Virus record (IMG/VR): IMGVR_UViG_3300037258_000161
Location: 1-64,000 of that record
DNA from: a virus
Length of the DNA: 64,000 nt
Direction: 5' to 3' (one strand)
In this document: piece by piece, positions 7,149-17,624 of the stretch
Position numbering within the stretch: position 1 is the first letter of the stretch
Layout of the letters: every line of letters begins with the position of its first letter
Translations under genes and position numbers: made by a program
Notes under the pieces: model-generated
Seen by the model: only the letters and a program-made list of their open reading frames with translations
Database searches by the model: none
What the model was told of the DNA's origin: nothing

Positions 7149-7399
7149 CCCCCGCCGAGATCCCAGACGAGGTGGTCGCCGCGGCCCTGCAGGCCGATCA
7201 CGAGGAAGGCGTGCGCGACGGCAGGAGCTATCACCAGGTCGCGGAGCATCAGGTGCGCAGGCTCATCGCTGGTGCTGTCACGGCTGAGCGGGAACGAATC
7301 ATCCGGCTGGCCGACCGGAACGAGGCTGTCTGTACCGGCGACGAGGGGACGAGCTGCTACTTCTCGGCGCTGATCCGGGAGGTGCCGGCCGATGAGTGA
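7145..7399 (+). CDS. hypothetical protein
   Basis: Coupled; C-terminal AERERIIRLA module. Confidence 0.6.
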   Translation: MTPAEIPDEVVAAALQADHEEGVRDGRSYHQVAEHQVRRLIAGAVTAERERIIRLADRNEAVCTGDEGTSCYFSALIREVPADE

Positions 7400-7742
7400 C
7401 GAGACCCTGCCACCCTGCCCCACCCCTTGTGACGACGACTGCGAACTGAACCCTGACGGCTGCCACGAGAGCCACATCCCCGATCACGGGAACAAGCGGG
7501 GTCACCAGCCGCACGGGTGCCTGGAGATCCGGCGCGCCATCGCTGCAGCTGTCGCGGCCGAGCAGGAGCGCGCCGAGGCTGAGCATGCGGAGTACCTGTC
7601 ACGGCTCACCCAAGAGATGGACGCGACGCTCCGCGACGAGCGGGACCGCATCATCGCGCTGGCCGAGAGGTGCTACGCCACCTGCCAGGACCAGAACGGT
7701 GACAGTTATCCGTTCGCGGATGCTATCCGGGAGCAGCAGTGA
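7392..7742 (+). CDS. hypothetical protein
   Basis: GGAGG SD; Cys/His N-terminus; C-terminal DERDRIIALA module. Confidence 0.6.
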   Translation: MSDETLPPCPTPCDDDCELNPDGCHESHIPDHGNKRGHQPHGCLEIRRAIAAAVAAEQERAEAEHAEYLSRLTQEMDATLRDERDRIIALAERCYATCQDQNGDSYPFADAIREQQ

Positions 7743-8665: not shown

Positions 8666-8712
8666 AGTGGCTTGCCACTCGTCCAGTCCGGCGATAGGCT
8701 GTGGCTAGCCAC
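8666..8712. promoter_or_regulatory. paired palindromic operators between divergent genes
   Basis: AGTGGCTTGCCACT (8666-8679) and GTGGCTAGCCAC (8701-8712), flanking a TAGGCT -10-like box. Confidence 0.6.
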
Positions 8713-8761
8713 TAGGAAGGTACCTCAGGTGCCCCAGTTGACTGGCGAGGAGGCTGACGCG

Positions 8762-8965
8762 ATGACTGCGGCGCGACCGCTGCTGTTCCTCGACGTTGAC
8801 GGCCCGCTGAACCCGTACGCGGCGGACCACGCCTACGCGGCCGAGCACACCACGGCCCCGTTCCTGCTCCAGTCGGTGAGCCCGCGCGTCGGCCTGCTGG
8901 CTGATGACTTCCGCACGCTGACCGAGTGGGCCCTGAGTATCGAGCCCGCGCCCAAGGAGGGCTAG
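8762..8965 (+). pseudogene. internally deleted HAD phosphatase (Swiss-Army-Knife RNA-repair-like HAD family)
   Basis: PLLFLDVDGPLNPYAA (motif I DxD) joined directly to the family C-terminus (LLQSVSPRVGL..DDF..L.EWA). Motifs II-IV missing; only 67 aa. Confidence 0.65.
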
Positions 8966-11114: not shown

Positions 11115-12287
11115 GTGCAGCAACTGTCAAAGCGCCTCATGAACTGGGCTTCGATCCTGGAGGACAACACCCGGGAGCAGGCCGAGCGCACGTCTACGAT
11201 GCCGTTCATCTTCCCGCACGTGGCCCTGATGCCCGACGCTCACCTCGGCAAGGGCTGCAGCGTAGGGACAGTGGTCCCCACCCTCGGCGCGATCATGCCA
11301 GCTTGCGTTGGCGTCGATATCGGATGTGGGATGCAGGCCGTCCGTACCCAGTTCACGGCGGAGCGCGTACGGGAGCGCGGGAGCCTGGCTGCGCTGCGGG
11401 TGGCGATCGAGAACGCGATCCCACTGTCGGCCGGGAAGTACAACGAGACCCTGCGGGATGACCCGGGGACCGCAGCGCGCATCGCAGACCTTGAAGGCCA
11501 TGACGGTGCGGAGAGCGCCGAGCGGATCGCCCCGAACTGGCGGCTGCAGCTCGGCTCGCTCGGCAGCGGCAACCACTTCATCGAGATCAGCCTCGATGAG
11601 CAGGGCGACGTGTGGCTGTTCCTGCACTCCGGGTCGCGCGGGGTCGGGAACAAGCTTGCCGTCCGGCACATCAAGATCGCGCTTGAGCAGTGCCGCAAGC
11701 GGTGGATCTCGCTGCCCGATCCCGACCTGGCCTACCTGGTGCAGGGTGACCGGGAGTTCTGGGACTACATCCGTGACCTGCGGTGGGCGCAGAACTTCGC
11801 GCTGCTGAACCGCGCCGAGATGATGGACCGGGTCACGCAGTGCCTCGCTGAGTGGATGAACGAGCCGGTCACGGCACGGGAGACCGTCGCGTGCCACCAC
11901 AACTACACAGAACAAGAGCGCCACTTCGGGAAGGACGTGTGGCTGAGCCGCAAAGGCGCGATCGACGCGTCCGAGGGCACGCCCGGCCTGATCCCCGGCT
12001 CGATGGGCACCCGCTCCTACGTCGTGACCGGGAAGGGCGACCGTCTGGCGCTCAATTCCTCGCCGCACGGTGCCGGCCGCCAGCACTCCCGCTCCTCGGC
12101 GCGCAAGACCTTCACCCGGGCCGAGCTGGACGCGGCGATGGAGGGCATCGAGTGGCGGCAGACCGATGCCTTCCTGGATGAGATCCCGGGGGCCTACAAG
12201 CCGATCGATGTTGTGATGGAAGATGCGAGCGATCTTGTGGAGATCCGCCACACGCTGCGCCAGATCGTGAACGTGAAGGGCGACTAG
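11115..12287 (+). CDS. rtcB: RtcB-family RNA ligase
   Basis: PDAHLGKG, GVDIGCGM, GSLGSGNHF, LHSGSRG, HHN, RKGA, IPGSMG, SPHGAGR, DEIPGAYK all present. GTG start after GGAAGGA. Confidence 0.97.
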   Translation: MQQLSKRLMNWASILEDNTREQAERTSTMPFIFPHVALMPDAHLGKGCSVGTVVPTLGAIMPACVGVDIGCGMQAVRTQFTAERVRERGSLAALRVAIENAIPLSAGKYNETLRDDPGTAARIADLEGHDGAESAERIAPNWRLQLGSLGSGNHFIEISLDEQGDVWLFLHSGSRGVGNKLAVRHIKIALEQCRKRWISLPDPDLAYLVQGDREFWDYIRDLRWAQNFALLNRAEMMDRVTQCLAEWMNEPVTARETVACHHNYTEQERHFGKDVWLSRKGAIDASEGTPGLIPGSMGTRSYVVTGKGDRLALNSSPHGAGRQHSRSSARKTFTRAELDAAMEGIEWRQTDAFLDEIPGAYKPIDVVMEDASDLVEIRHTLRQIVNVKGD

Positions 12288-12299
12288 CGCTCCCGCTGT

Positions 12300-12305
12300 T
12301 ACGAT
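12300..12305 (+). promoter_or_regulatory. -10 box for the tRNA transcript
   Basis: TACGAT ~8 nt upstream of a 17-bp leader hairpin. Confidence 0.5.
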
Positions 12306-12395
12306 GGATACACCGGTCGGGAGGAGGCGCACCATGCGGGAACTGTCCGCCGCCAGCGCCTTCTCCCGACCGCGACCCTGACTGTGCTCTGCCAG

Positions 12396-12469
12396 CGGGG
12401 TGTGGGGAAGGTTGGTATCCCGCGTGATTTGGGATCACGAGATCGCCGGTTCGAATCCGGTCACCCCGA
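12396..12469 (+). tRNA. tRNA-Pro (UGG), no encoded CCA
   Basis: Acceptor CGGGGTG/CACCCCG + A; D-stem GGGA/TCCC; anticodon stem CGTGA/TCACG with loop TTTGGGA; T-arm GCCGG-TTCGAAT-CCGGT; followed by CGA. Confidence 0.95.
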
Positions 12470-12691
12470 CGAGTCCTCCAGGCGCCTGATCCCGGCCGGG
12501 TCGTAGAGGAACCATCCCTCCCGTCCCCCGACCGCTGACGACGCGTACCAGCGGATCCCCACACACCAGCGGCCATGACGGTCCCTGCGCTGGCCGATGA
12601 CCCGGGCATCCGCCCAGGTGCCGTCCTGGAGCAGCACCCCGGCATCGGAGTCCTCGAGCCTGGTACTGCCTTCCACGGCATCTGCGGGCAT
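12461..12691 (-). CDS. small beta-rich hypothetical protein
   Basis: DGTWADARVIGQRRD..GRWCVGIRWY...GWFLYD looks like a folded SH3-like protein. Its stop lies in the antisense of the tRNA 3' end. Confidence 0.55.
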   Translation of the reverse strand: MPADAVEGSTRLEDSDAGVLLQDGTWADARVIGQRRDRHGRWCVGIRWYASSAVGGREGWFLYDPAGIRRLEDSSG

Positions 12692-12732
12692 GGCGCGCTC
12701 AAGCTGGGGCTCGCGGGAGGGGTCGGAGATGG

Positions 12733-13416
12733 TCACCCGGTCCACATGGCCGAGCGCACCCGCAGCAGCCACGCCTCGGCCGCAGCCTCGTCCGGGTCGG
12801 CCGGGAGCGGCGTCCGGATGGTGTCGAAGTCATGCTCAGCCTCGGCCAGCAGCGCGCGGGCCGCGTCGAGATCCCCGGCCGCCACCTGCTCCCCGAACTC
12901 GAAGAACTCGGCCGGGTTGCCCAGCCGCACATGCAGTTCGCCGGTCCGGTACAGTTCCCGTCCCTGCACGACCAGCCGCTTGAGGTGCCTCGCGTGCTTT
13001 GCCGTGCGCTTCCTGGTGTCGGCCGAGAACGAGCCGTCGCCACGGTTTTCCAGCTTCCGGAATTGCTGGGTGGCATACCCGAGGTGCGCATCCCTGACCC
13101 GCTTCGCAGACAGCAGCAACGAGCGGATGCCCACCAGCTCGTCGCCGAGGGGAGTGCGGACCTCCCACGAGTCCAGCCACACCAGCTCCGTGACGGTCGG
13201 GTTGCCGCCCAGGGCGAGCGAGACCCACTTCCGGGCCTCGTGGCAGGTGGAGTCCGGGTGCGTGGTGACGTGCGATTCCTGCGGCTTGTGCAGGCCATGG
13301 AACGCCACCGTGGGCGCAGCGAAAACGCCCAGCCTGTCAACGTCGGACTCCGGCGTGGCCAGCCCGTAAGCGGTTGAGCCCACCACGCCTGCCAGCAGGA
13401 TCGTTCCCGGGATCAT
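12733..13416 (-). CDS. RlaP/YcgL-like Pol-beta nucleotidyltransferase
   Basis: GVVGSTAYGLATPESDVD, HEARK, GNPTVTELVW, KHARHL.RL; ATGA-coupled to the CCA enzyme gene. Confidence 0.88.
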   Translation of the reverse strand: MIPGTILLAGVVGSTAYGLATPESDVDRLGVFAAPTVAFHGLHKPQESHVTTHPDSTCHEARKWVSLALGGNPTVTELVWLDSWEVRTPLGDELVGIRSLLLSAKRVRDAHLGYATQQFRKLENRGDGSFSADTRKRTAKHARHLKRLVVQGRELYRTGELHVRLGNPAEFFEFGEQVAAGDLDAARALLAEAEHDFDTIRTPLPADPDEAAAEAWLLRVRSAMWTG

Positions 13417-14792
13417 GCGGCCTCCCTCCGTGCGGCGAACCATGCGAGCGCGCCGGCCTCGTCATCGAACTCCCCGGCATCCTGCGCCGCGAGGGCGGCA
13501 GCAAGAACCGGCTTAAACGCCGGGCCCGGGATCATCCCGGCAGCGATGAGGTGGTCTCCGGTCAGCAGCCCCTTCGCGGGCCGCTCGGTCACCCTGAGTC
13601 CTGCCGCGAGTTCCAGCCAGCGGGCAGCCGGGTTCGCTGCCTGCGGATCGCCGCGCCCGGCCCGGTCAGCGCCGCAGACGATCGCCAGCTCGGCCATCGT
13701 CGCGGGCACGAGCCGCCGCGCCAGCCTGCGCACGGCTGGCTTTGTCGGCCGCCCGGTGCAGCACATGTGCTCTTTCACTAGCGGGACAATGTGCGCGATC
13801 ACCCCCTCCGGGCAGGCGACCGAGCGGAGGAATGCCTGGGCCGGCCCAACCCCCGCCGTAGCGTGGCCCTGGGATGTGATCCGCCCCCCGGTCCGCTGGG
13901 TGTGCGTCACCTTGCCCAGGTCGTGCAGGAGTGCGCCCATGACGACCACGAAGCGGTCAGCGCCAGTCAGCCCTGCGTCGTCGGCCAGTCCCGCGGCCTG
14001 GTCCCCGGCCAGCCCGGAGTGGACGTGGACATCTCCCTCCGGGTGCCATGCCGGGTCCTGCTCGACTTCGTGCAGGGATGCGATCTGCGGGAAGTGCCGC
14101 TCCCATCCGGTGTCCGCCAGCACCGTGAGTGCGGCGCTGAGGTGCCTGCCCTTGGTGCCGATCTTCTCGAACTCCACCCAGACGCGCTCTACTGGCAGCT
14201 CGGCGTAGGAGTCCGCCAGTGAGCGGCAGAGCGCGGCGGTTTCCGGGGCGAGCGTGAAGCCGAACCGGGCGGCGAACTGCACTGCGCGCAGCACTCGCAG
14301 CGGATCCTCGGCGAACGCGGCAGACGTGTGCCGCAGGATTCCGGCCCGGATGTCAGCTGTGCCCCCGTGGCAATCGACAACCTCGCCGGTCTCCGGGTCG
14401 AGCAGGATCGCGTTCATCGTGAAGTCGCGCCGGGCGCTCGCCTCCGCGAAGCTGAGGCTCATGTCGGGGAAGACCTCGAAGCCGCGGTGACCGGTACTGA
14501 CCTTCCGCTCCCGGCGCGGGACGTTCACGTCGAGGTCAGTCTCCCCGGCGCGGATCTTGAGCACGCCGAAGCTCTTGCCGACCTCGTCCACCCGCCCGGC
14601 CTGGCTGAGAGCTTCCGCCACGGCGGCGAAGGTCAGGCCGTAGACCTCAATGTCGATGTCCTTGGCCGCGTGGCCCGCGCCGATGATGGCATCCCGGACG
14701 CACCCGCCGACGAGCATGGGCCGTCCGCCTGCGCCACGGATGGCGGCAAGGATGCGCCCCGTCTCAGGATCAAGGTGCGTGGTGATGGTCAC
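13413..14792 (-). CDS. cca: class II CCA-adding enzyme with HD phosphatase domain
   Basis: VGGCVRD..KDIDIEV, RRDFTMNA, EDPLRVLR, HPEGDV.VH...LLHDLGK, C-terminal GDHLIAAG..PGP.F..L. Confidence 0.92.
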   Translation of the reverse strand: MTITTHLDPETGRILAAIRGAGGRPMLVGGCVRDAIIGAGHAAKDIDIEVYGLTFAAVAEALSQAGRVDEVGKSFGVLKIRAGETDLDVNVPRRERKVSTGHRGFEVFPDMSLSFAEASARRDFTMNAILLDPETGEVVDCHGGTADIRAGILRHTSAAFAEDPLRVLRAVQFAARFGFTLAPETAALCRSLADSYAELPVERVWVEFEKIGTKGRHLSAALTVLADTGWERHFPQIASLHEVEQDPAWHPEGDVHVHSGLAGDQAAGLADDAGLTGADRFVVVMGALLHDLGKVTHTQRTGGRITSQGHATAGVGPAQAFLRSVACPEGVIAHIVPLVKEHMCCTGRPTKPAVRRLARRLVPATMAELAIVCGADRAGRGDPQAANPAARWLELAAGLRVTERPAKGLLTGDHLIAAGMIPGPAFKPVLAAALAAQDAGEFDDEAGALAWFAARREAA

Positions 14793-14821: not shown

Positions 14822-15424
14822 TCACGGGGTCAGGAACAACTGGCCCTGCGCCCGGCAGTAGAGGTCCGTCAGCACTGCTTCCCATGTCGCCGCCGAGACG
14901 ATCGGGCCGCGGCCAAAGTGGGCTCCGAAGCCAAGGATGCTGGACACGCCCTCGCCTTCGAGGCAGCCGAGGGCGACCTTCAACTGCTCGTCCGAGAATG
15001 TGGCGAGCGCTTTGAGCATCTCCCTGCCCGGCCCGGTGTACGACTTCACTGCCTCGCGAAAGCTCGACGTGAAGAAGAGTTCTGTATGGTCTCCGGTTCG
15101 CGGATGGCCAGCCAGCCACTTCCACATGTACCGGGGGTCGATGGTGTCTGGGGCCGCCAGGTGGCACTCATGGCAGAGGAGCACCCTGTTAGCCGGGTCA
15201 TCATCGGACCCGCCGAGCGACTTGGGTATGACGTGCGCCCGGTCCAGCGAGATGCCGCGCTCCCATGAATGGTCGCGACCCCATGCCTGTGCGTCGTACT
15301 TGCCCCACGCTCCGCAGGCAAAGCAGTCCGGCTCGCCCCGGTCGATGCACGGAACGTAGTCCGTCCCCGGTATCCAGCGCCCGGCCCAGTAGGCGGCTAC
15401 TTCCGCGATTGTTGGCTCGCTCAT
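14822..15424 (-). CDS. HNH endonuclease
   Basis: CFACG ... RAHVIPKSLGGSDDDPANRVLLCHECH. Confidence 0.85.
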   Translation of the reverse strand: MSEPTIAEVAAYWAGRWIPGTDYVPCIDRGEPDCFACGAWGKYDAQAWGRDHSWERGISLDRAHVIPKSLGGSDDDPANRVLLCHECHLAAPDTIDPRYMWKWLAGHPRTGDHTELFFTSSFREAVKSYTGPGREMLKALATFSDEQLKVALGCLEGEGVSSILGFGAHFGRGPIVSAATWEAVLTDLYCRAQGQLFLTP

Positions 15425-16053
15425 GATTCCCCCTGTGTTGGTAGCGACGGCAGGTCCGCAGCTTCAAGCGCCGTGACGGCCTGCCCATTGGTCAGGTGGT
15501 CTAGGTAGCGCGCGGTCACGGCCACACTGGAATGACCCAGTAGCTTGCTGATGGTGGTCACGGTTTCCCCGGCTGCCTCAAGTTCGGCCGCGAAGGTGTG
15601 CCGCAGTCCGTGCGGGTGAACGCGTCGCTCAATGCCGGCCTTGGCGGCCATCCGCTTGAGCGCGTCCCGCACGTAGCGGTCGGACAGCTTGCCGCCGGCC
15701 AGCGTGCAGAACATCGGCCCGTTGCGGAGGCTGAGTCCGCGCCGGGTGTCGAGCCAGCGAGCCAGCGCGTCGTCGGCGCTTGGATGGAAGCCGCGAGTCT
15801 GGGGCTTGCCCGTCTTGGTGTCGAGCAGCCGGATGCTGTGCTTGGCCATGTCCACATCAGCCGGGCGCACCGCCAGAACTTCAGACACACGGAGACCGGA
15901 GCGGTAAAGCATGGTGATCATCGCGCGGTTGCGTATACCCGTTGGAGCCCGCATCGAGCACCCATGCAGGAGCATCGCCACCTCGGCCGGGCTAAGTAGC
16001 TCAGCGGGGAACTTCCGGTCCCAGTTCGGCGGATGCTGTCCTTTCTCTGCCAT
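15421..16053 (-). CDS. tyrosine recombinase, catalytic domain only (~210 aa)
   Basis: GLRVSE, TKTGK, HPHGLRH, LLGH, TARY: full R-K-H-R-H-Y set; no N-terminal core-binding domain. Confidence 0.9.
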   Translation of the reverse strand: MAEKGQHPPNWDRKFPAELLSPAEVAMLLHGCSMRAPTGIRNRAMITMLYRSGLRVSEVLAVRPADVDMAKHSIRLLDTKTGKPQTRGFHPSADDALARWLDTRRGLSLRNGPMFCTLAGGKLSDRYVRDALKRMAAKAGIERRVHPHGLRHTFAAELEAAGETVTTISKLLGHSSVAVTARYLDHLTNGQAVTALEAADLPSLPTQGES

Positions 16054-16074
16054 AGTGGCCCACCTGACGGCTTG

Positions 16075-16102
16075 AGTGTTGCCTTTGACTATTAGCAACA
16101 CT
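16075..16102. promoter_or_regulatory. candidate tyrosine-recombinase core site / operator (11-6-11 geometry)
   Basis: AGTGTTGC-N12-GCAACACT inverted repeat; extra half-site AGCAACATTAT at 16144-16154. Confidence 0.55.
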
Positions 16103-16162: not shown

Positions 16163-17560
16163 TCAGCGCCACTCGTACAAGATCGCGCTCCGATCGAAAT
16201 ACCGGCCGTCCTGCATCGGCCCCCTCGGCCGTCCCCGCTGCGGCATGATCCACACCCAGGCGAACACGTCCCCGACGATGGCCCGCTGCCGCCCGATGTC
16301 CAGCCCGGCGAGCCACCCGCGGATCTCCTCCGCCGAGGCGGGCATCCCCGACAGCGGCGACGCCCCGGCAGCCGCAGCGAGCCGGGCGTTGAGCGCGGCG
16401 ATCTCCCGGTCCGCCCTTGCGGTCCCGGCCGCGAGCTGCCGCCTGTCGATGATCCCGGCGACCTTGTCCTCCACGAGGTCGTCCTTGGCCTTGCGCCAGG
16501 AGATCACCTGCGCCGCGATGGCGTCAGTGTCGGGCAGTTCCCTTCCCCTCGGTGCCGCCTGCTGCCCGTCCCGTGCGAGCCGCGTGGCCATCAGGTCGCG
16601 GATCCACTCGTCCACGGGGGAGCAGGTGCGGGAGACGTGCCCGGTGCAGCGGTAGACGGTGCGCCGGTCCCCGTGGTGGGTGTGCAGGAGGCCCTGGCAG
16701 ATGCCGCACTGGAACAGGCTCCCGCCGAGCCACCTGCGTTCCGGTCCCGGGGTGGTGCGGCGTGACGGGTCACCCAGGATGGCCTGGAGGCCGCGGAACA
16801 GGGTCACGTCGATGACGGCCGGCCACTGGCCCGTGACTCCCTCGGCCCCCTGCCAGACGTTGATGCCGGCGTTGCGTGGCCGCAGGAGGGTCCGCCTGAC
16901 CATGGGCGCGGTCCAGGTGCCGCCCCGCGAGCCTGTCACCCCGGCCGCGGTCCAGCGCTTGGCGATGGCCAGCAGCGGCGTGCCGCTGAGCACAGCGCTG
17001 GAGGCGTCGCGGAGGAGCTGCGCCTCGGACTCGCGGATGACCAGCCCGCCCCCGGTGCGCTCGTACCCGAACGGCCTGGGACCCCCGGACCAGATGCCCG
17101 CCGCTGCCTGCTCGGCCTTGAGGGCGAGGATGCGCTCGGTGAGGTGGTCCACCTCGTAGGCGGCGTCGGTGGCGTCGTTGCGCAGGCGCTTGCGCCCCGT
17201 GGCGGTGGAGAGGTCATAGGAGCCGCCCCGGGGAGTCTCCACCAGGTGCCTGCCGGCGGCGCAGACGCGGATGAGTTCCTCGGTGTCATCGGCGTTGCGG
17301 ATGAGCCGGTCGGCGTGCCAGGCGGCGACACCGAGTCCGGGTGTGGCGCGGAGGGCGGCGAGCATGTCGTCGAATCCCTCGCGCTCGGGCCGCGCTCCGC
17401 CTACCTTGCGGTATGCGGTCCGGTCGGTGTCGGTGTACTCGCCGAGGACTTTCGCGCCGAGGCTGCCGAGGTAGCCGGCGGTGACGGTGCGCTGGCGTGC
17501 AACGCCGGCGCGGCCTTTGCTCTTGCGGAGGTAGAGCACGTACCCGCGTGGCTCGTCCAT
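16163..17560 (-). CDS. large serine recombinase (integrase)
   Basis: YLRKS catalytic motif, DRLIRN, GGPRPFGY recombinase domain, CGIC...YRC Zn ribbon, coiled coil. Confidence 0.92.
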   Translation of the reverse strand: MDEPRGYVLYLRKSKGRAGVARQRTVTAGYLGSLGAKVLGEYTDTDRTAYRKVGGARPEREGFDDMLAALRATPGLGVAAWHADRLIRNADDTEELIRVCAAGRHLVETPRGGSYDLSTATGRKRLRNDATDAAYEVDHLTERILALKAEQAAAGIWSGGPRPFGYERTGGGLVIRESEAQLLRDASSAVLSGTPLLAIAKRWTAAGVTGSRGGTWTAPMVRRTLLRPRNAGINVWQGAEGVTGQWPAVIDVTLFRGLQAILGDPSRRTTPGPERRWLGGSLFQCGICQGLLHTHHGDRRTVYRCTGHVSRTCSPVDEWIRDLMATRLARDGQQAAPRGRELPDTDAIAAQVISWRKAKDDLVEDKVAGIIDRRQLAAGTARADREIAALNARLAAAAGASPLSGMPASAEEIRGWLAGLDIGRQRAIVGDVFAWVWIMPQRGRPRGPMQDGRYFDRSAILYEWR

Positions 17561-17624
17561 GGACAGAGAGGCTATACCCATCCATCGCGCACTCTATTGC
17601 CTAAAATGGACTCCGAACGCCGCG

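Follow-up and report, generated by a model that had tools for sequence, protein, structure and literature searches.

A candidate RNA end-repair locus in a probably temperate actinophage couples an RlaP-family nucleotidyltransferase to a CCA/HD enzyme

Why would a phage hold an RNA ligase, a tRNA gene and two RNA-related nucleotidyltransferases together at one locus? We addressed this question in a 64,000-nucleotide stretch of viral DNA (positions 1 to 64,000 of the IMG/VR record IMGVR_UViG_3300037258_000161; hereafter the window), which is the first 64 kb of a contig of 108,411 bp with 68% G+C. An earlier note on this DNA had described four RNA-related genes at 11115-14792, and all four are present there: RtcB, a 3'-phosphate/2',3'-cyclic-phosphate RNA ligase of 390 amino acids (aa) (11115-12287, plus strand; PF01139, phrog_1075); a tRNA-Pro(UGG) without an encoded CCA (12396-12470, plus strand; ARAGORN, Rfam RF00005); a short-form RlaP-family Pol-beta nucleotidyltransferase of 227 aa (12733-13416, minus strand; PF10127, phrog_388); and a class II tRNA nucleotidyltransferase of the CCA-adding type with an HD phosphohydrolase domain, 459 aa (13413-14792, minus strand; PF01743, PF12627, PF01966), called the CCA/HD enzyme below. 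Observed here were the identities of the genes, their intact motifs, the coupling and the recurrent linkage; together these suggest, with a probability that we place slightly above even (about 0.55), that the phage carries a module for the repair of RNA ends, chiefly those of tRNA, in two chemically separate branches. The idea of a repair kit made of all four genes, as the earlier note had it, stands only in part: three intact RNA-end enzymes and their recurrent linkage speak for it, while tRNA-Pro is not a member and RtcB is facultative.

The coupling of the CCA/HD gene and rlaP on the minus strand, which had been read as an ATGA junction, is real. The stop codon of the CCA/HD gene and the start codon of rlaP share ATGA, within the stretch GGAGGGAGGCCGCATGATCC, and a strong Shine-Dalgarno sequence for rlaP, GGAGGGAGG, sits inside the end of the CCA/HD gene. 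RlaP matches PF10127 with 70 bits (cut-off 23) over profile positions 19-169 of 249; among 21 relatives its G13-S14 and D25-x-D27 do not vary, and at least 90% of them have D55. An AlphaFold2 (AF2) model with a predicted local distance difference test score (pLDDT) of 93 has the two-domain fold of Pol-beta-type nucleotidyltransferases. The folds nearest to the model are the kanamycin nucleotidyltransferase and Hailong HalB at template modelling (TM) scores of 0.4-0.49, both generic nucleotidyltransferases, and neither a sequence nor a Foldseek search of our copy of the PDB found a solved RlaP structure. A complex prediction for the CCA/HD enzyme and RlaP gave a score of 0.00 and a mark of 0.32, which counts neither for nor against binding. 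The gene is associated with RNA ligase and end-healing genes, as RtcB lies about 450 bp away on the opposite strand here and RtcB, Pnkp or Rnl genes are adjacent in relatives. Activity of the family on RNA, another point raised by the earlier note, has already been shown for its Pseudomonas members: PfRlaP and PaRlaP add one or two nucleoside monophosphates to RNA ends with a 3'-OH, not to those with a 3'-phosphate (preprint PMC12776372).

The partner protein consists of a PolyA_pol head (PF01743), an RNA-binding domain (PF12627) and an HD domain (PF01966, 25.4 bits against a cut-off of 22). When the head was tested for the motif set of class II CCA enzymes (GGxVRD, DxD, RRD and (E/D)DxxR), the corresponding residues G29-G30-x-V32-R33-D34, D45-x-D47, R121-R122-D123 and D163-x-x-R166 were found to be invariant or nearly so in 16 relatives; H250, H258, H290-D291, H342 and D376 of the HD domain are invariant in 16 relatives. 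In E. coli the HD domain of the CCA enzyme is a 2',3'-cyclic phosphodiesterase and phosphatase, as reportedly shown by Yakunin et al. in 2004. The best NCBIfam match is the E. coli-type multifunctional CCA protein NF008137 (180.5 bits, below the cut-off of 451), PcnB and A-adding models score lower than this, and the actinobacterial-type TIGR02692 reaches 124.8 bits, below its cut-off of 438.8. By these profile scores the protein is a CCA-type class II enzyme and an orthologue of neither the NF008137 nor the TIGR02692 type. Because the best score is far under the equivalog cut-off and the score against the actinobacterial type is lower still, the gene is not, as judged from such models, a recent copy of a host enzyme. 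Homologues at least 65% identical make up more than 120 protein clusters, all metagenomic and many of them on contigs of 98-185 kb, and on this sampling they are a separate clade, mostly of phage and metagenome sequences. The N-termini of 15 relatives agree with a GTG start at 14792; the recorded gene call (13413-14717; 434 aa, from Met26) starts 25 codons later, and the relatives favour the form of 459 aa.

Does the pair recur elsewhere? The earlier note had suggested looking for it in other actinophages, and adjacency was found in most related loci. Nine high-GC contigs in IMG/VR carry a CCA gene 63-80% identical to the present one, with RlaP directly adjacent in eight. The order is RlaP-CCA in six contigs and CCA-RlaP in two (L043, L045) as well as in this phage; a scrap of a Streptosporangiaceae metagenome-assembled genome (L140) also has CCA-RlaP. 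The 4-nt overlap between start and stop is kept in 6/8 (L039, L040, L041, L042, L043, L045), including both orders. Flanking genes are almost never common between related loci, so it seems that the genes move as a cassette, and in L045 the pair also adjoins homologues of the tyrosine recombinase and the serine integrase found near it here.

Linkage is also seen in unrelated phages. The phage of L013/L014 (39% GC) has RlaP, RtcB and CCA within 4.7 kb, and L229 and L233 (55-57% GC) hold RtcB with one RlaP, followed by a second RlaP that overlaps CCA. At three loci (L097:9863-11394, L101:5146-6577 and L103:9007-10438) a long-form RlaP either overlaps a stand-alone HD protein of 171-192 aa or directly adjoins it; this protein resembles the HD part of the CCA enzyme. 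A metagenome scan, of which the matches listed have 40-59% identity apart from one short fragment at 76%, gave 64 loci among those matches; both RtcB loci also had RlaP, as against 5/64 overall. In a maximum-likelihood tree of RlaP, which is rooted at the midpoint and has long branches that limit finer claims, the CCA-linked proteins are spread over several distinct clades with good support, and the partners vary inside clades, which suggests that the pairing arose repeatedly. The tree does not settle one against two origins of the CCA-then-RlaP order in the high-GC clade. Judged from the linkage of these genes in related and unrelated phage contigs, their clustering is more than chance, and the role in tRNA ends that had been proposed for RlaP with the CCA/HD enzyme gains support from the coupled adjacency in both orders and from the pairing of RlaP with stand-alone HD proteins.

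Two observations on RlaP genes in other contigs belong here. The two RlaP paralogues in L233:5457-11359 and L229:1691-11359 come from very different clades, as if there were one per end-enzyme. In L005:6778-7962, which is from the same contig as L044, rlaP carries an insert of about 465 nt through which the RlaP frame stays open; the insert encodes an Endonuclease VII protein in another frame (7217-7687, PF02945, E 1e-22) and looks like a homing-endonuclease insertion into rlaP.

RtcB is intact by its motifs and, by its distribution, an optional partner of the pair. It matches PF01139 over the full length of the profile (positions 1-426; E 6.8e-115, 385 bits against a cut-off of 27), starts at a GTG that is preceded by the Shine-Dalgarno sequence GGAAGGA and lies 4 nt beyond the stop of the gene upstream, and is the last gene of a rightward early/replication operon. 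When aligned with Pyrococcus PH1602, the blocks MPDxH, GxDIxCG, GSGNHF, HSGSRG, HHN and PHGAGR are all kept, and D41, H43, D68, C71, N153-H154, H171, H261/H262 and H318 align with the conserved blocks. The His of PHGAGR we take to be the site of the GMP adduct, and the Asp, Cys and His residues presumably bind metal as in published RtcB structures. The catalytic motifs are intact in this alignment, and the protein is predicted to join 3'-phosphate or 2',3'-cyclic-phosphate to 5'-OH ends in a GTP- and Mn-dependent manner. It is 74% identical to the RtcB that adjoins the pair in L041 (RlaP-CCA-RtcB), and in L042 RtcB adjoins the pair as well (RtcB-RlaP-CCA). All three clade members that have RtcB (this phage, L041 and L042) thus keep it beside the pair, in three different arrangements of which the one here is convergent. 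The full contigs from which L039, L040, L044, L045 and L046 come lack RtcB; 4/5 of them are at least 94% complete and 4/5 carry the pair. Co-occurrence in relatives, on which the earlier note had staked its reading, therefore varies by gene: RlaP and CCA go together in 8/9, RtcB is absent from five contigs, and a tRNA gene is absent from three complete relatives. The RtcB of L042 (L042:7103-9247) is interrupted in frame by about 309 codons placed precisely at the catalytic Cys of GxDIxCG (residue 71 here), which is where an intein would be expected.

The tRNA-Pro(UGG) (ARAGORN call; 60.2 bits to Rfam RF00005) is the sole tRNA in the 108,411-bp genome. Its C1-G72 pair and A73 were read from the sequence, and actinobacterial tRNA-Pro genes that were compared are mostly without an encoded CCA too. 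It is identical to actinobacterial tRNA-Pro(UGG) at 52-57 of 75 positions and differs in the stems and at loop positions 32 and 38, an altered anticodon arm that would be compatible with evasion of anticodon nucleases. The CCA codon accounts for 7.6% of the Pro codons in 61 confident phage genes and 2.6% in 257 Streptomyces open reading frames (ORFs), and because of this roughly 3-fold use the simplest reading is that of an ordinary codon-supply tRNA that happens to share the accessory region with the repair genes. In three complete relatives that carry the pair, tRNA genes are lacking altogether, and most relatives have no tRNA beside the pair; tRNA-Pro is, on this comparison, not a conserved member of the module. 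An overlap of the tRNA with phage and bacterial attachment sites (attP/attB) was considered and rejected, as the gene is that of a full tRNA with about 70-76% identity to actinobacterial tRNA-Pro(UGG), and five host-type genomes gave no long match, the longest being 28 nt in the T-arm.

How would the enzymes act together? Metal-independent anticodon nucleases leave 2',3'-cyclic or 3'-phosphate and 5'-OH ends. In one branch of the module RtcB would re-seal breaks with such ends, and in the other the coupled CCA/HD-RlaP pair would rebuild damaged 3' acceptor ends in a ligase-free manner: the HD domain would strip the terminal phosphate, RlaP would put back one or two missing nucleotides that precede CCA (the discriminator, for instance), and the CCA head would re-add CCA. 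We infer this order of steps, the substrates and a role in counter-defence from the gene set. RtcA (PF01137) was not found in the phage genome, which is 92% complete according to CheckV, and no search was aimed at RtcR-type regulators; an Rnl2-type ligase and an AAA_33 kinase were not found in this genome either. The 3'-OH product of RlaP would thus be left without a phage ligase to seal it, and since RlaP needs a 3'-OH end, the HD domain would be its logical upstream partner and the CCA head the downstream one. The substrates would be mainly host tRNAs, as complete relatives with the pair but without tRNA genes must act on host RNAs. Location of the locus beside the integration module, here and in L045, hints at expression in the lysogen. 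A wider proposal, which we offer tentatively and with clearly less confidence than the two-branch module itself, is that RlaP and an HD phosphoesterase, usually fused to a CCA enzyme, form a distinct ligase-independent pathway (HD, RlaP, CCA head) for acceptor ends cut beyond CCA. This pathway would have been assembled convergently several times, and some phages, this one included, would have added RtcB to cover attacks on both the anticodon loop and the acceptor end.

The nearest competitor to the two-branch module is a role for RlaP in the service of RtcB, as has been proposed for the family (PMC7824862; PMC12776372): a RloC-type nuclease would cut the anticodon loop and remove a nucleotide, RlaP would fill in, and RtcB would re-ligate, with the CCA/HD enzyme being only a phosphatase or independent. 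The adjacency of RtcB and RlaP in L233 and L042 fits this, as does the in vitro preference of RlaP for the anticodon-side 3' end (PMC12776372). However, such a serial route still faces a chemical mismatch, acknowledged by the authors of that preprint, in that RlaP leaves a 3'-OH which RtcB, needing a 3'-phosphate, cannot use, and the genome search found neither RtcA nor a kinase in this phage. Moreover, four contigs with the pair, three of them at least 94% complete, are entirely without RtcB, rlaP is coupled here to CCA and not to RtcB, and L229 and L233 hold a separate RlaP paralogue for each partner, which together make this explanation unlikely. Somewhat less probable still is that the CCA enzyme and RlaP support translation by raising the maturation and maintenance of tRNA 3' ends during infection, those of the phage tRNA-Pro included. 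The missing CCA in the phage tRNA gene and in most actinobacterial tRNA-Pro genes and the codon-supply role of tRNA-Pro would agree with such a function, but the three complete relatives have the pair and no tRNA genes, and the host already needs a CCA enzyme of its own. Maturation also fails to account for the repeated association with RlaP, with stand-alone HD proteins and with RtcB, and an HD phosphoesterase would be useful only on damaged ends.

Could the genes simply be independent accessory genes that happen to meet in a variable region by the integration module? Two recombinases and an HNH gene adjoin the locus, flanks differ among relatives, and the tRNA and a small ORF are not conserved partners. 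Yet the linkage of RlaP with CCA/HD survives rearrangements and arose in separate RlaP clades, RtcB is adjacent in every clade member that has it, and RlaP accompanied both RtcB loci among the metagenome matches listed; we regard a chance neighbourhood as improbable. We give the least credence to the view that the RlaP-like protein acts on a small molecule or nucleotide signal, like ANT(4') or HalB, with the HD domain degrading a nucleotide product. The best structural matches named above and the Streptomyces homologues that adjoin a paralogue of elongation factor G (EF-G), not RNA-repair genes, would suit it. On the other side, the Pfam match to RlaP is well above the cut-off, close relatives adjoin Pnkp or RNA ligase genes, the partner has the tRNA-binding body of a CCA enzyme, and the structural matches are generic for the fold, with no RlaP structure in the PDB copy searched.

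Several points count against the RNA end-repair module. To our knowledge, no natural toxin that removes the discriminator has been identified for these hosts. The sub-cut-off equivalog score leaves CCA addition, as opposed to addition of A or CC, a predicted and not an established specificity, and the short-form RlaP aligns to no more than the initial two thirds of the Pfam model and is distant from the characterised Pseudomonas enzymes. No CCA or RtcB gene within 10 kb and no ligase partner was found for the chromosomal RlaP copies (33 loci), and a full-length EF-G paralogue follows RlaP in 14/33 of them (L117:9878-13092 and 13 further Streptomyces loci among L105-L137); this RlaP subfamily can, as its gene neighbourhoods suggest, work without CCA or ligase partners. 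Furthermore, the public runs that hold the phage sequence are three, all of soil DNA and none of RNA. The adjacency to EF-G may reflect a separate, translation-linked role of the RlaP subfamily.

These chromosomal copies also bear on the host. Among cellular RlaPs, those nearest to the phage protein (57-69% identity) are chromosomal and come from about 33 genomes. Almost all of these are Streptomyces; the others are Wenjunlia, Streptacidiphilus, Spirillospora and two uncultured Actinomycetota. In the tree the cellular and phage proteins are intermingled, which supports a Streptomyces-type host. In Spirillospora (L109:9631-10684) the chromosomal RlaP homologue is immediately preceded by a tRNA-Gly and a tRNA-Pro(UGG). 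The phage tRNA-Pro(UGG) neighbours RlaP too, although it has another sequence and the opposite orientation.

The phage itself is, by its gene content, a large tailed actinophage and probably temperate, because the contig has a terminase, a portal-size ORF and a tape-measure-size ORF of 1,342 codons on the minus strand, and a serine integrase is also present. The repair locus adjoins the integration region, in which two recombinases head the same strand: the serine integrase (16163-17581, minus; PF00239 + PF07508), a mini tyrosine recombinase of 226 aa (15421-16101, minus; PF00589), an HNH endonuclease (14822-15424, minus; PF01844), CCA, RlaP and possibly a 77-codon ORF form a tight minus-strand run, with gaps upstream of CCA of at most 61 nt. 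The HNH gene overlaps the tyrosine recombinase gene by 4 nt, is separated from the CCA gene by 29 nt and has no counterpart in the related loci; on this comparison it is a lineage-specific insertion and is treated as context only. Daredevil, Alone3 and L005 likewise have homing endonuclease genes beside their RNA-repair genes. The possible 77-codon ORF (12461-12692, minus) is of uncertain status. It lies downstream of RlaP within an ORF of 103 aa (12461-12772) with a coding-like GC content at third codon positions (GC3), its stop overlaps the 3' end of tRNA-Pro on the opposite strand, and it matches no Pfam or NCBIfam family; the related loci contain no homologue of it. A scan for sigma-70 promoters and terminators between the convergent RtcB and RlaP sides gave nothing meaningful. 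A remnant of a HAD phosphatase noted earlier at 8672-8965 has no Pfam or NCBIfam match and no tie to the module. Outside the window, 78 kb from the repair locus, there is a TROVE/Ro60-type gene (genome positions 90597-92255, minus; PF05731, 42.9 bits).

Modular RNA-repair systems of bacteria and phages are said to have been set out by Burroughs and Aravind in 2016, and the present phage resembles them in having RtcB, RlaP, a CCA-type nucleotidyltransferase, an HD phosphoesterase and a distant TROVE/Ro60 gene; it differs in that RlaP is translationally coupled to CCA/HD and not to a ligase. RlaP, the CCA enzyme, RtcB and TROVE have been listed together as phage RNA-repair parts in a survey of jumbo phages (PMC7824862), whereas the genome here is of 108 kb, has an integrase and an inferred Streptomyces-type host, and is not that of a jumbo lytic phage. 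The rtcB-rlaP-rtcA operons of Pseudomonas fluorescens and P. aeruginosa are similar in having an RlaP by Pfam and RtcB within 450 bp. In contrast to them, RtcA was not found in the phage (with no search aimed at RtcR-type regulators), RlaP and RtcB are on opposite strands, and RlaP is of the short form (227 aa, profile positions 19-169) with CCA/HD as its direct partner. The bacterial Rtc operon (RtcR-rtcB-rtcA, optionally with rsr and Y RNA) likewise includes the RtcA that is missing here, and the TROVE gene is present but 78 kb off.

Among actinophages, the subcluster K1 mycobacteriophages and DS6A have an RtcB 58-61% identical to the present one and one tRNA, but no RlaP or CCA gene near RtcB. 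A role of RtcB and tRNA against tRNA cleavage was proposed by Pope et al. 2011 for temperate cluster K phages (PMC3203893). With RtcB common in temperate actinophages (DS6A, cluster K), the view in the earlier note that such a set is unusual in a temperate siphophage was overstated. Streptomyces phage GiJojo and Gordonia phages Daredevil and Bantam have an RlaP 42-51% identical beside Pnkp and/or an RNA ligase of the ATP-dependent type, with homing endonuclease genes nearby. The difference from these and from the Pnkp-Rnl1 heal-and-seal system of T4 is that the partner here is CCA/HD and that no kinase or ATP-dependent ligase is found in the genome. Phage kits with RlaP, CCA and RtcB, and RtcB with a tRNA in temperate actinophages, are already known; no description of the coupled RlaP-CCA/HD pair, its two orders, its HD-only partners or its repeated origin was found in the accessible literature.

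For this phage alone the finding is modest, since its components and the overall concept had been described before. RlaP is widespread, and the sole biochemical study (PMC12776372) ends with a product that its usual neighbour RtcB cannot seal. Phage loci offer another partner: in separate lineages RlaP is coupled to the CCA/HD enzyme or to an HD protein alone, often where no ligase is present, and the pair provides a clean test case in which the function of RlaP becomes directly testable. If the reading is true, HD, RlaP and CCA restoring the charging of 3'-clipped tRNAs would be a new repair route, and it would mean that Streptomyces-type hosts or competitors use toxins against the acceptor end of tRNA.

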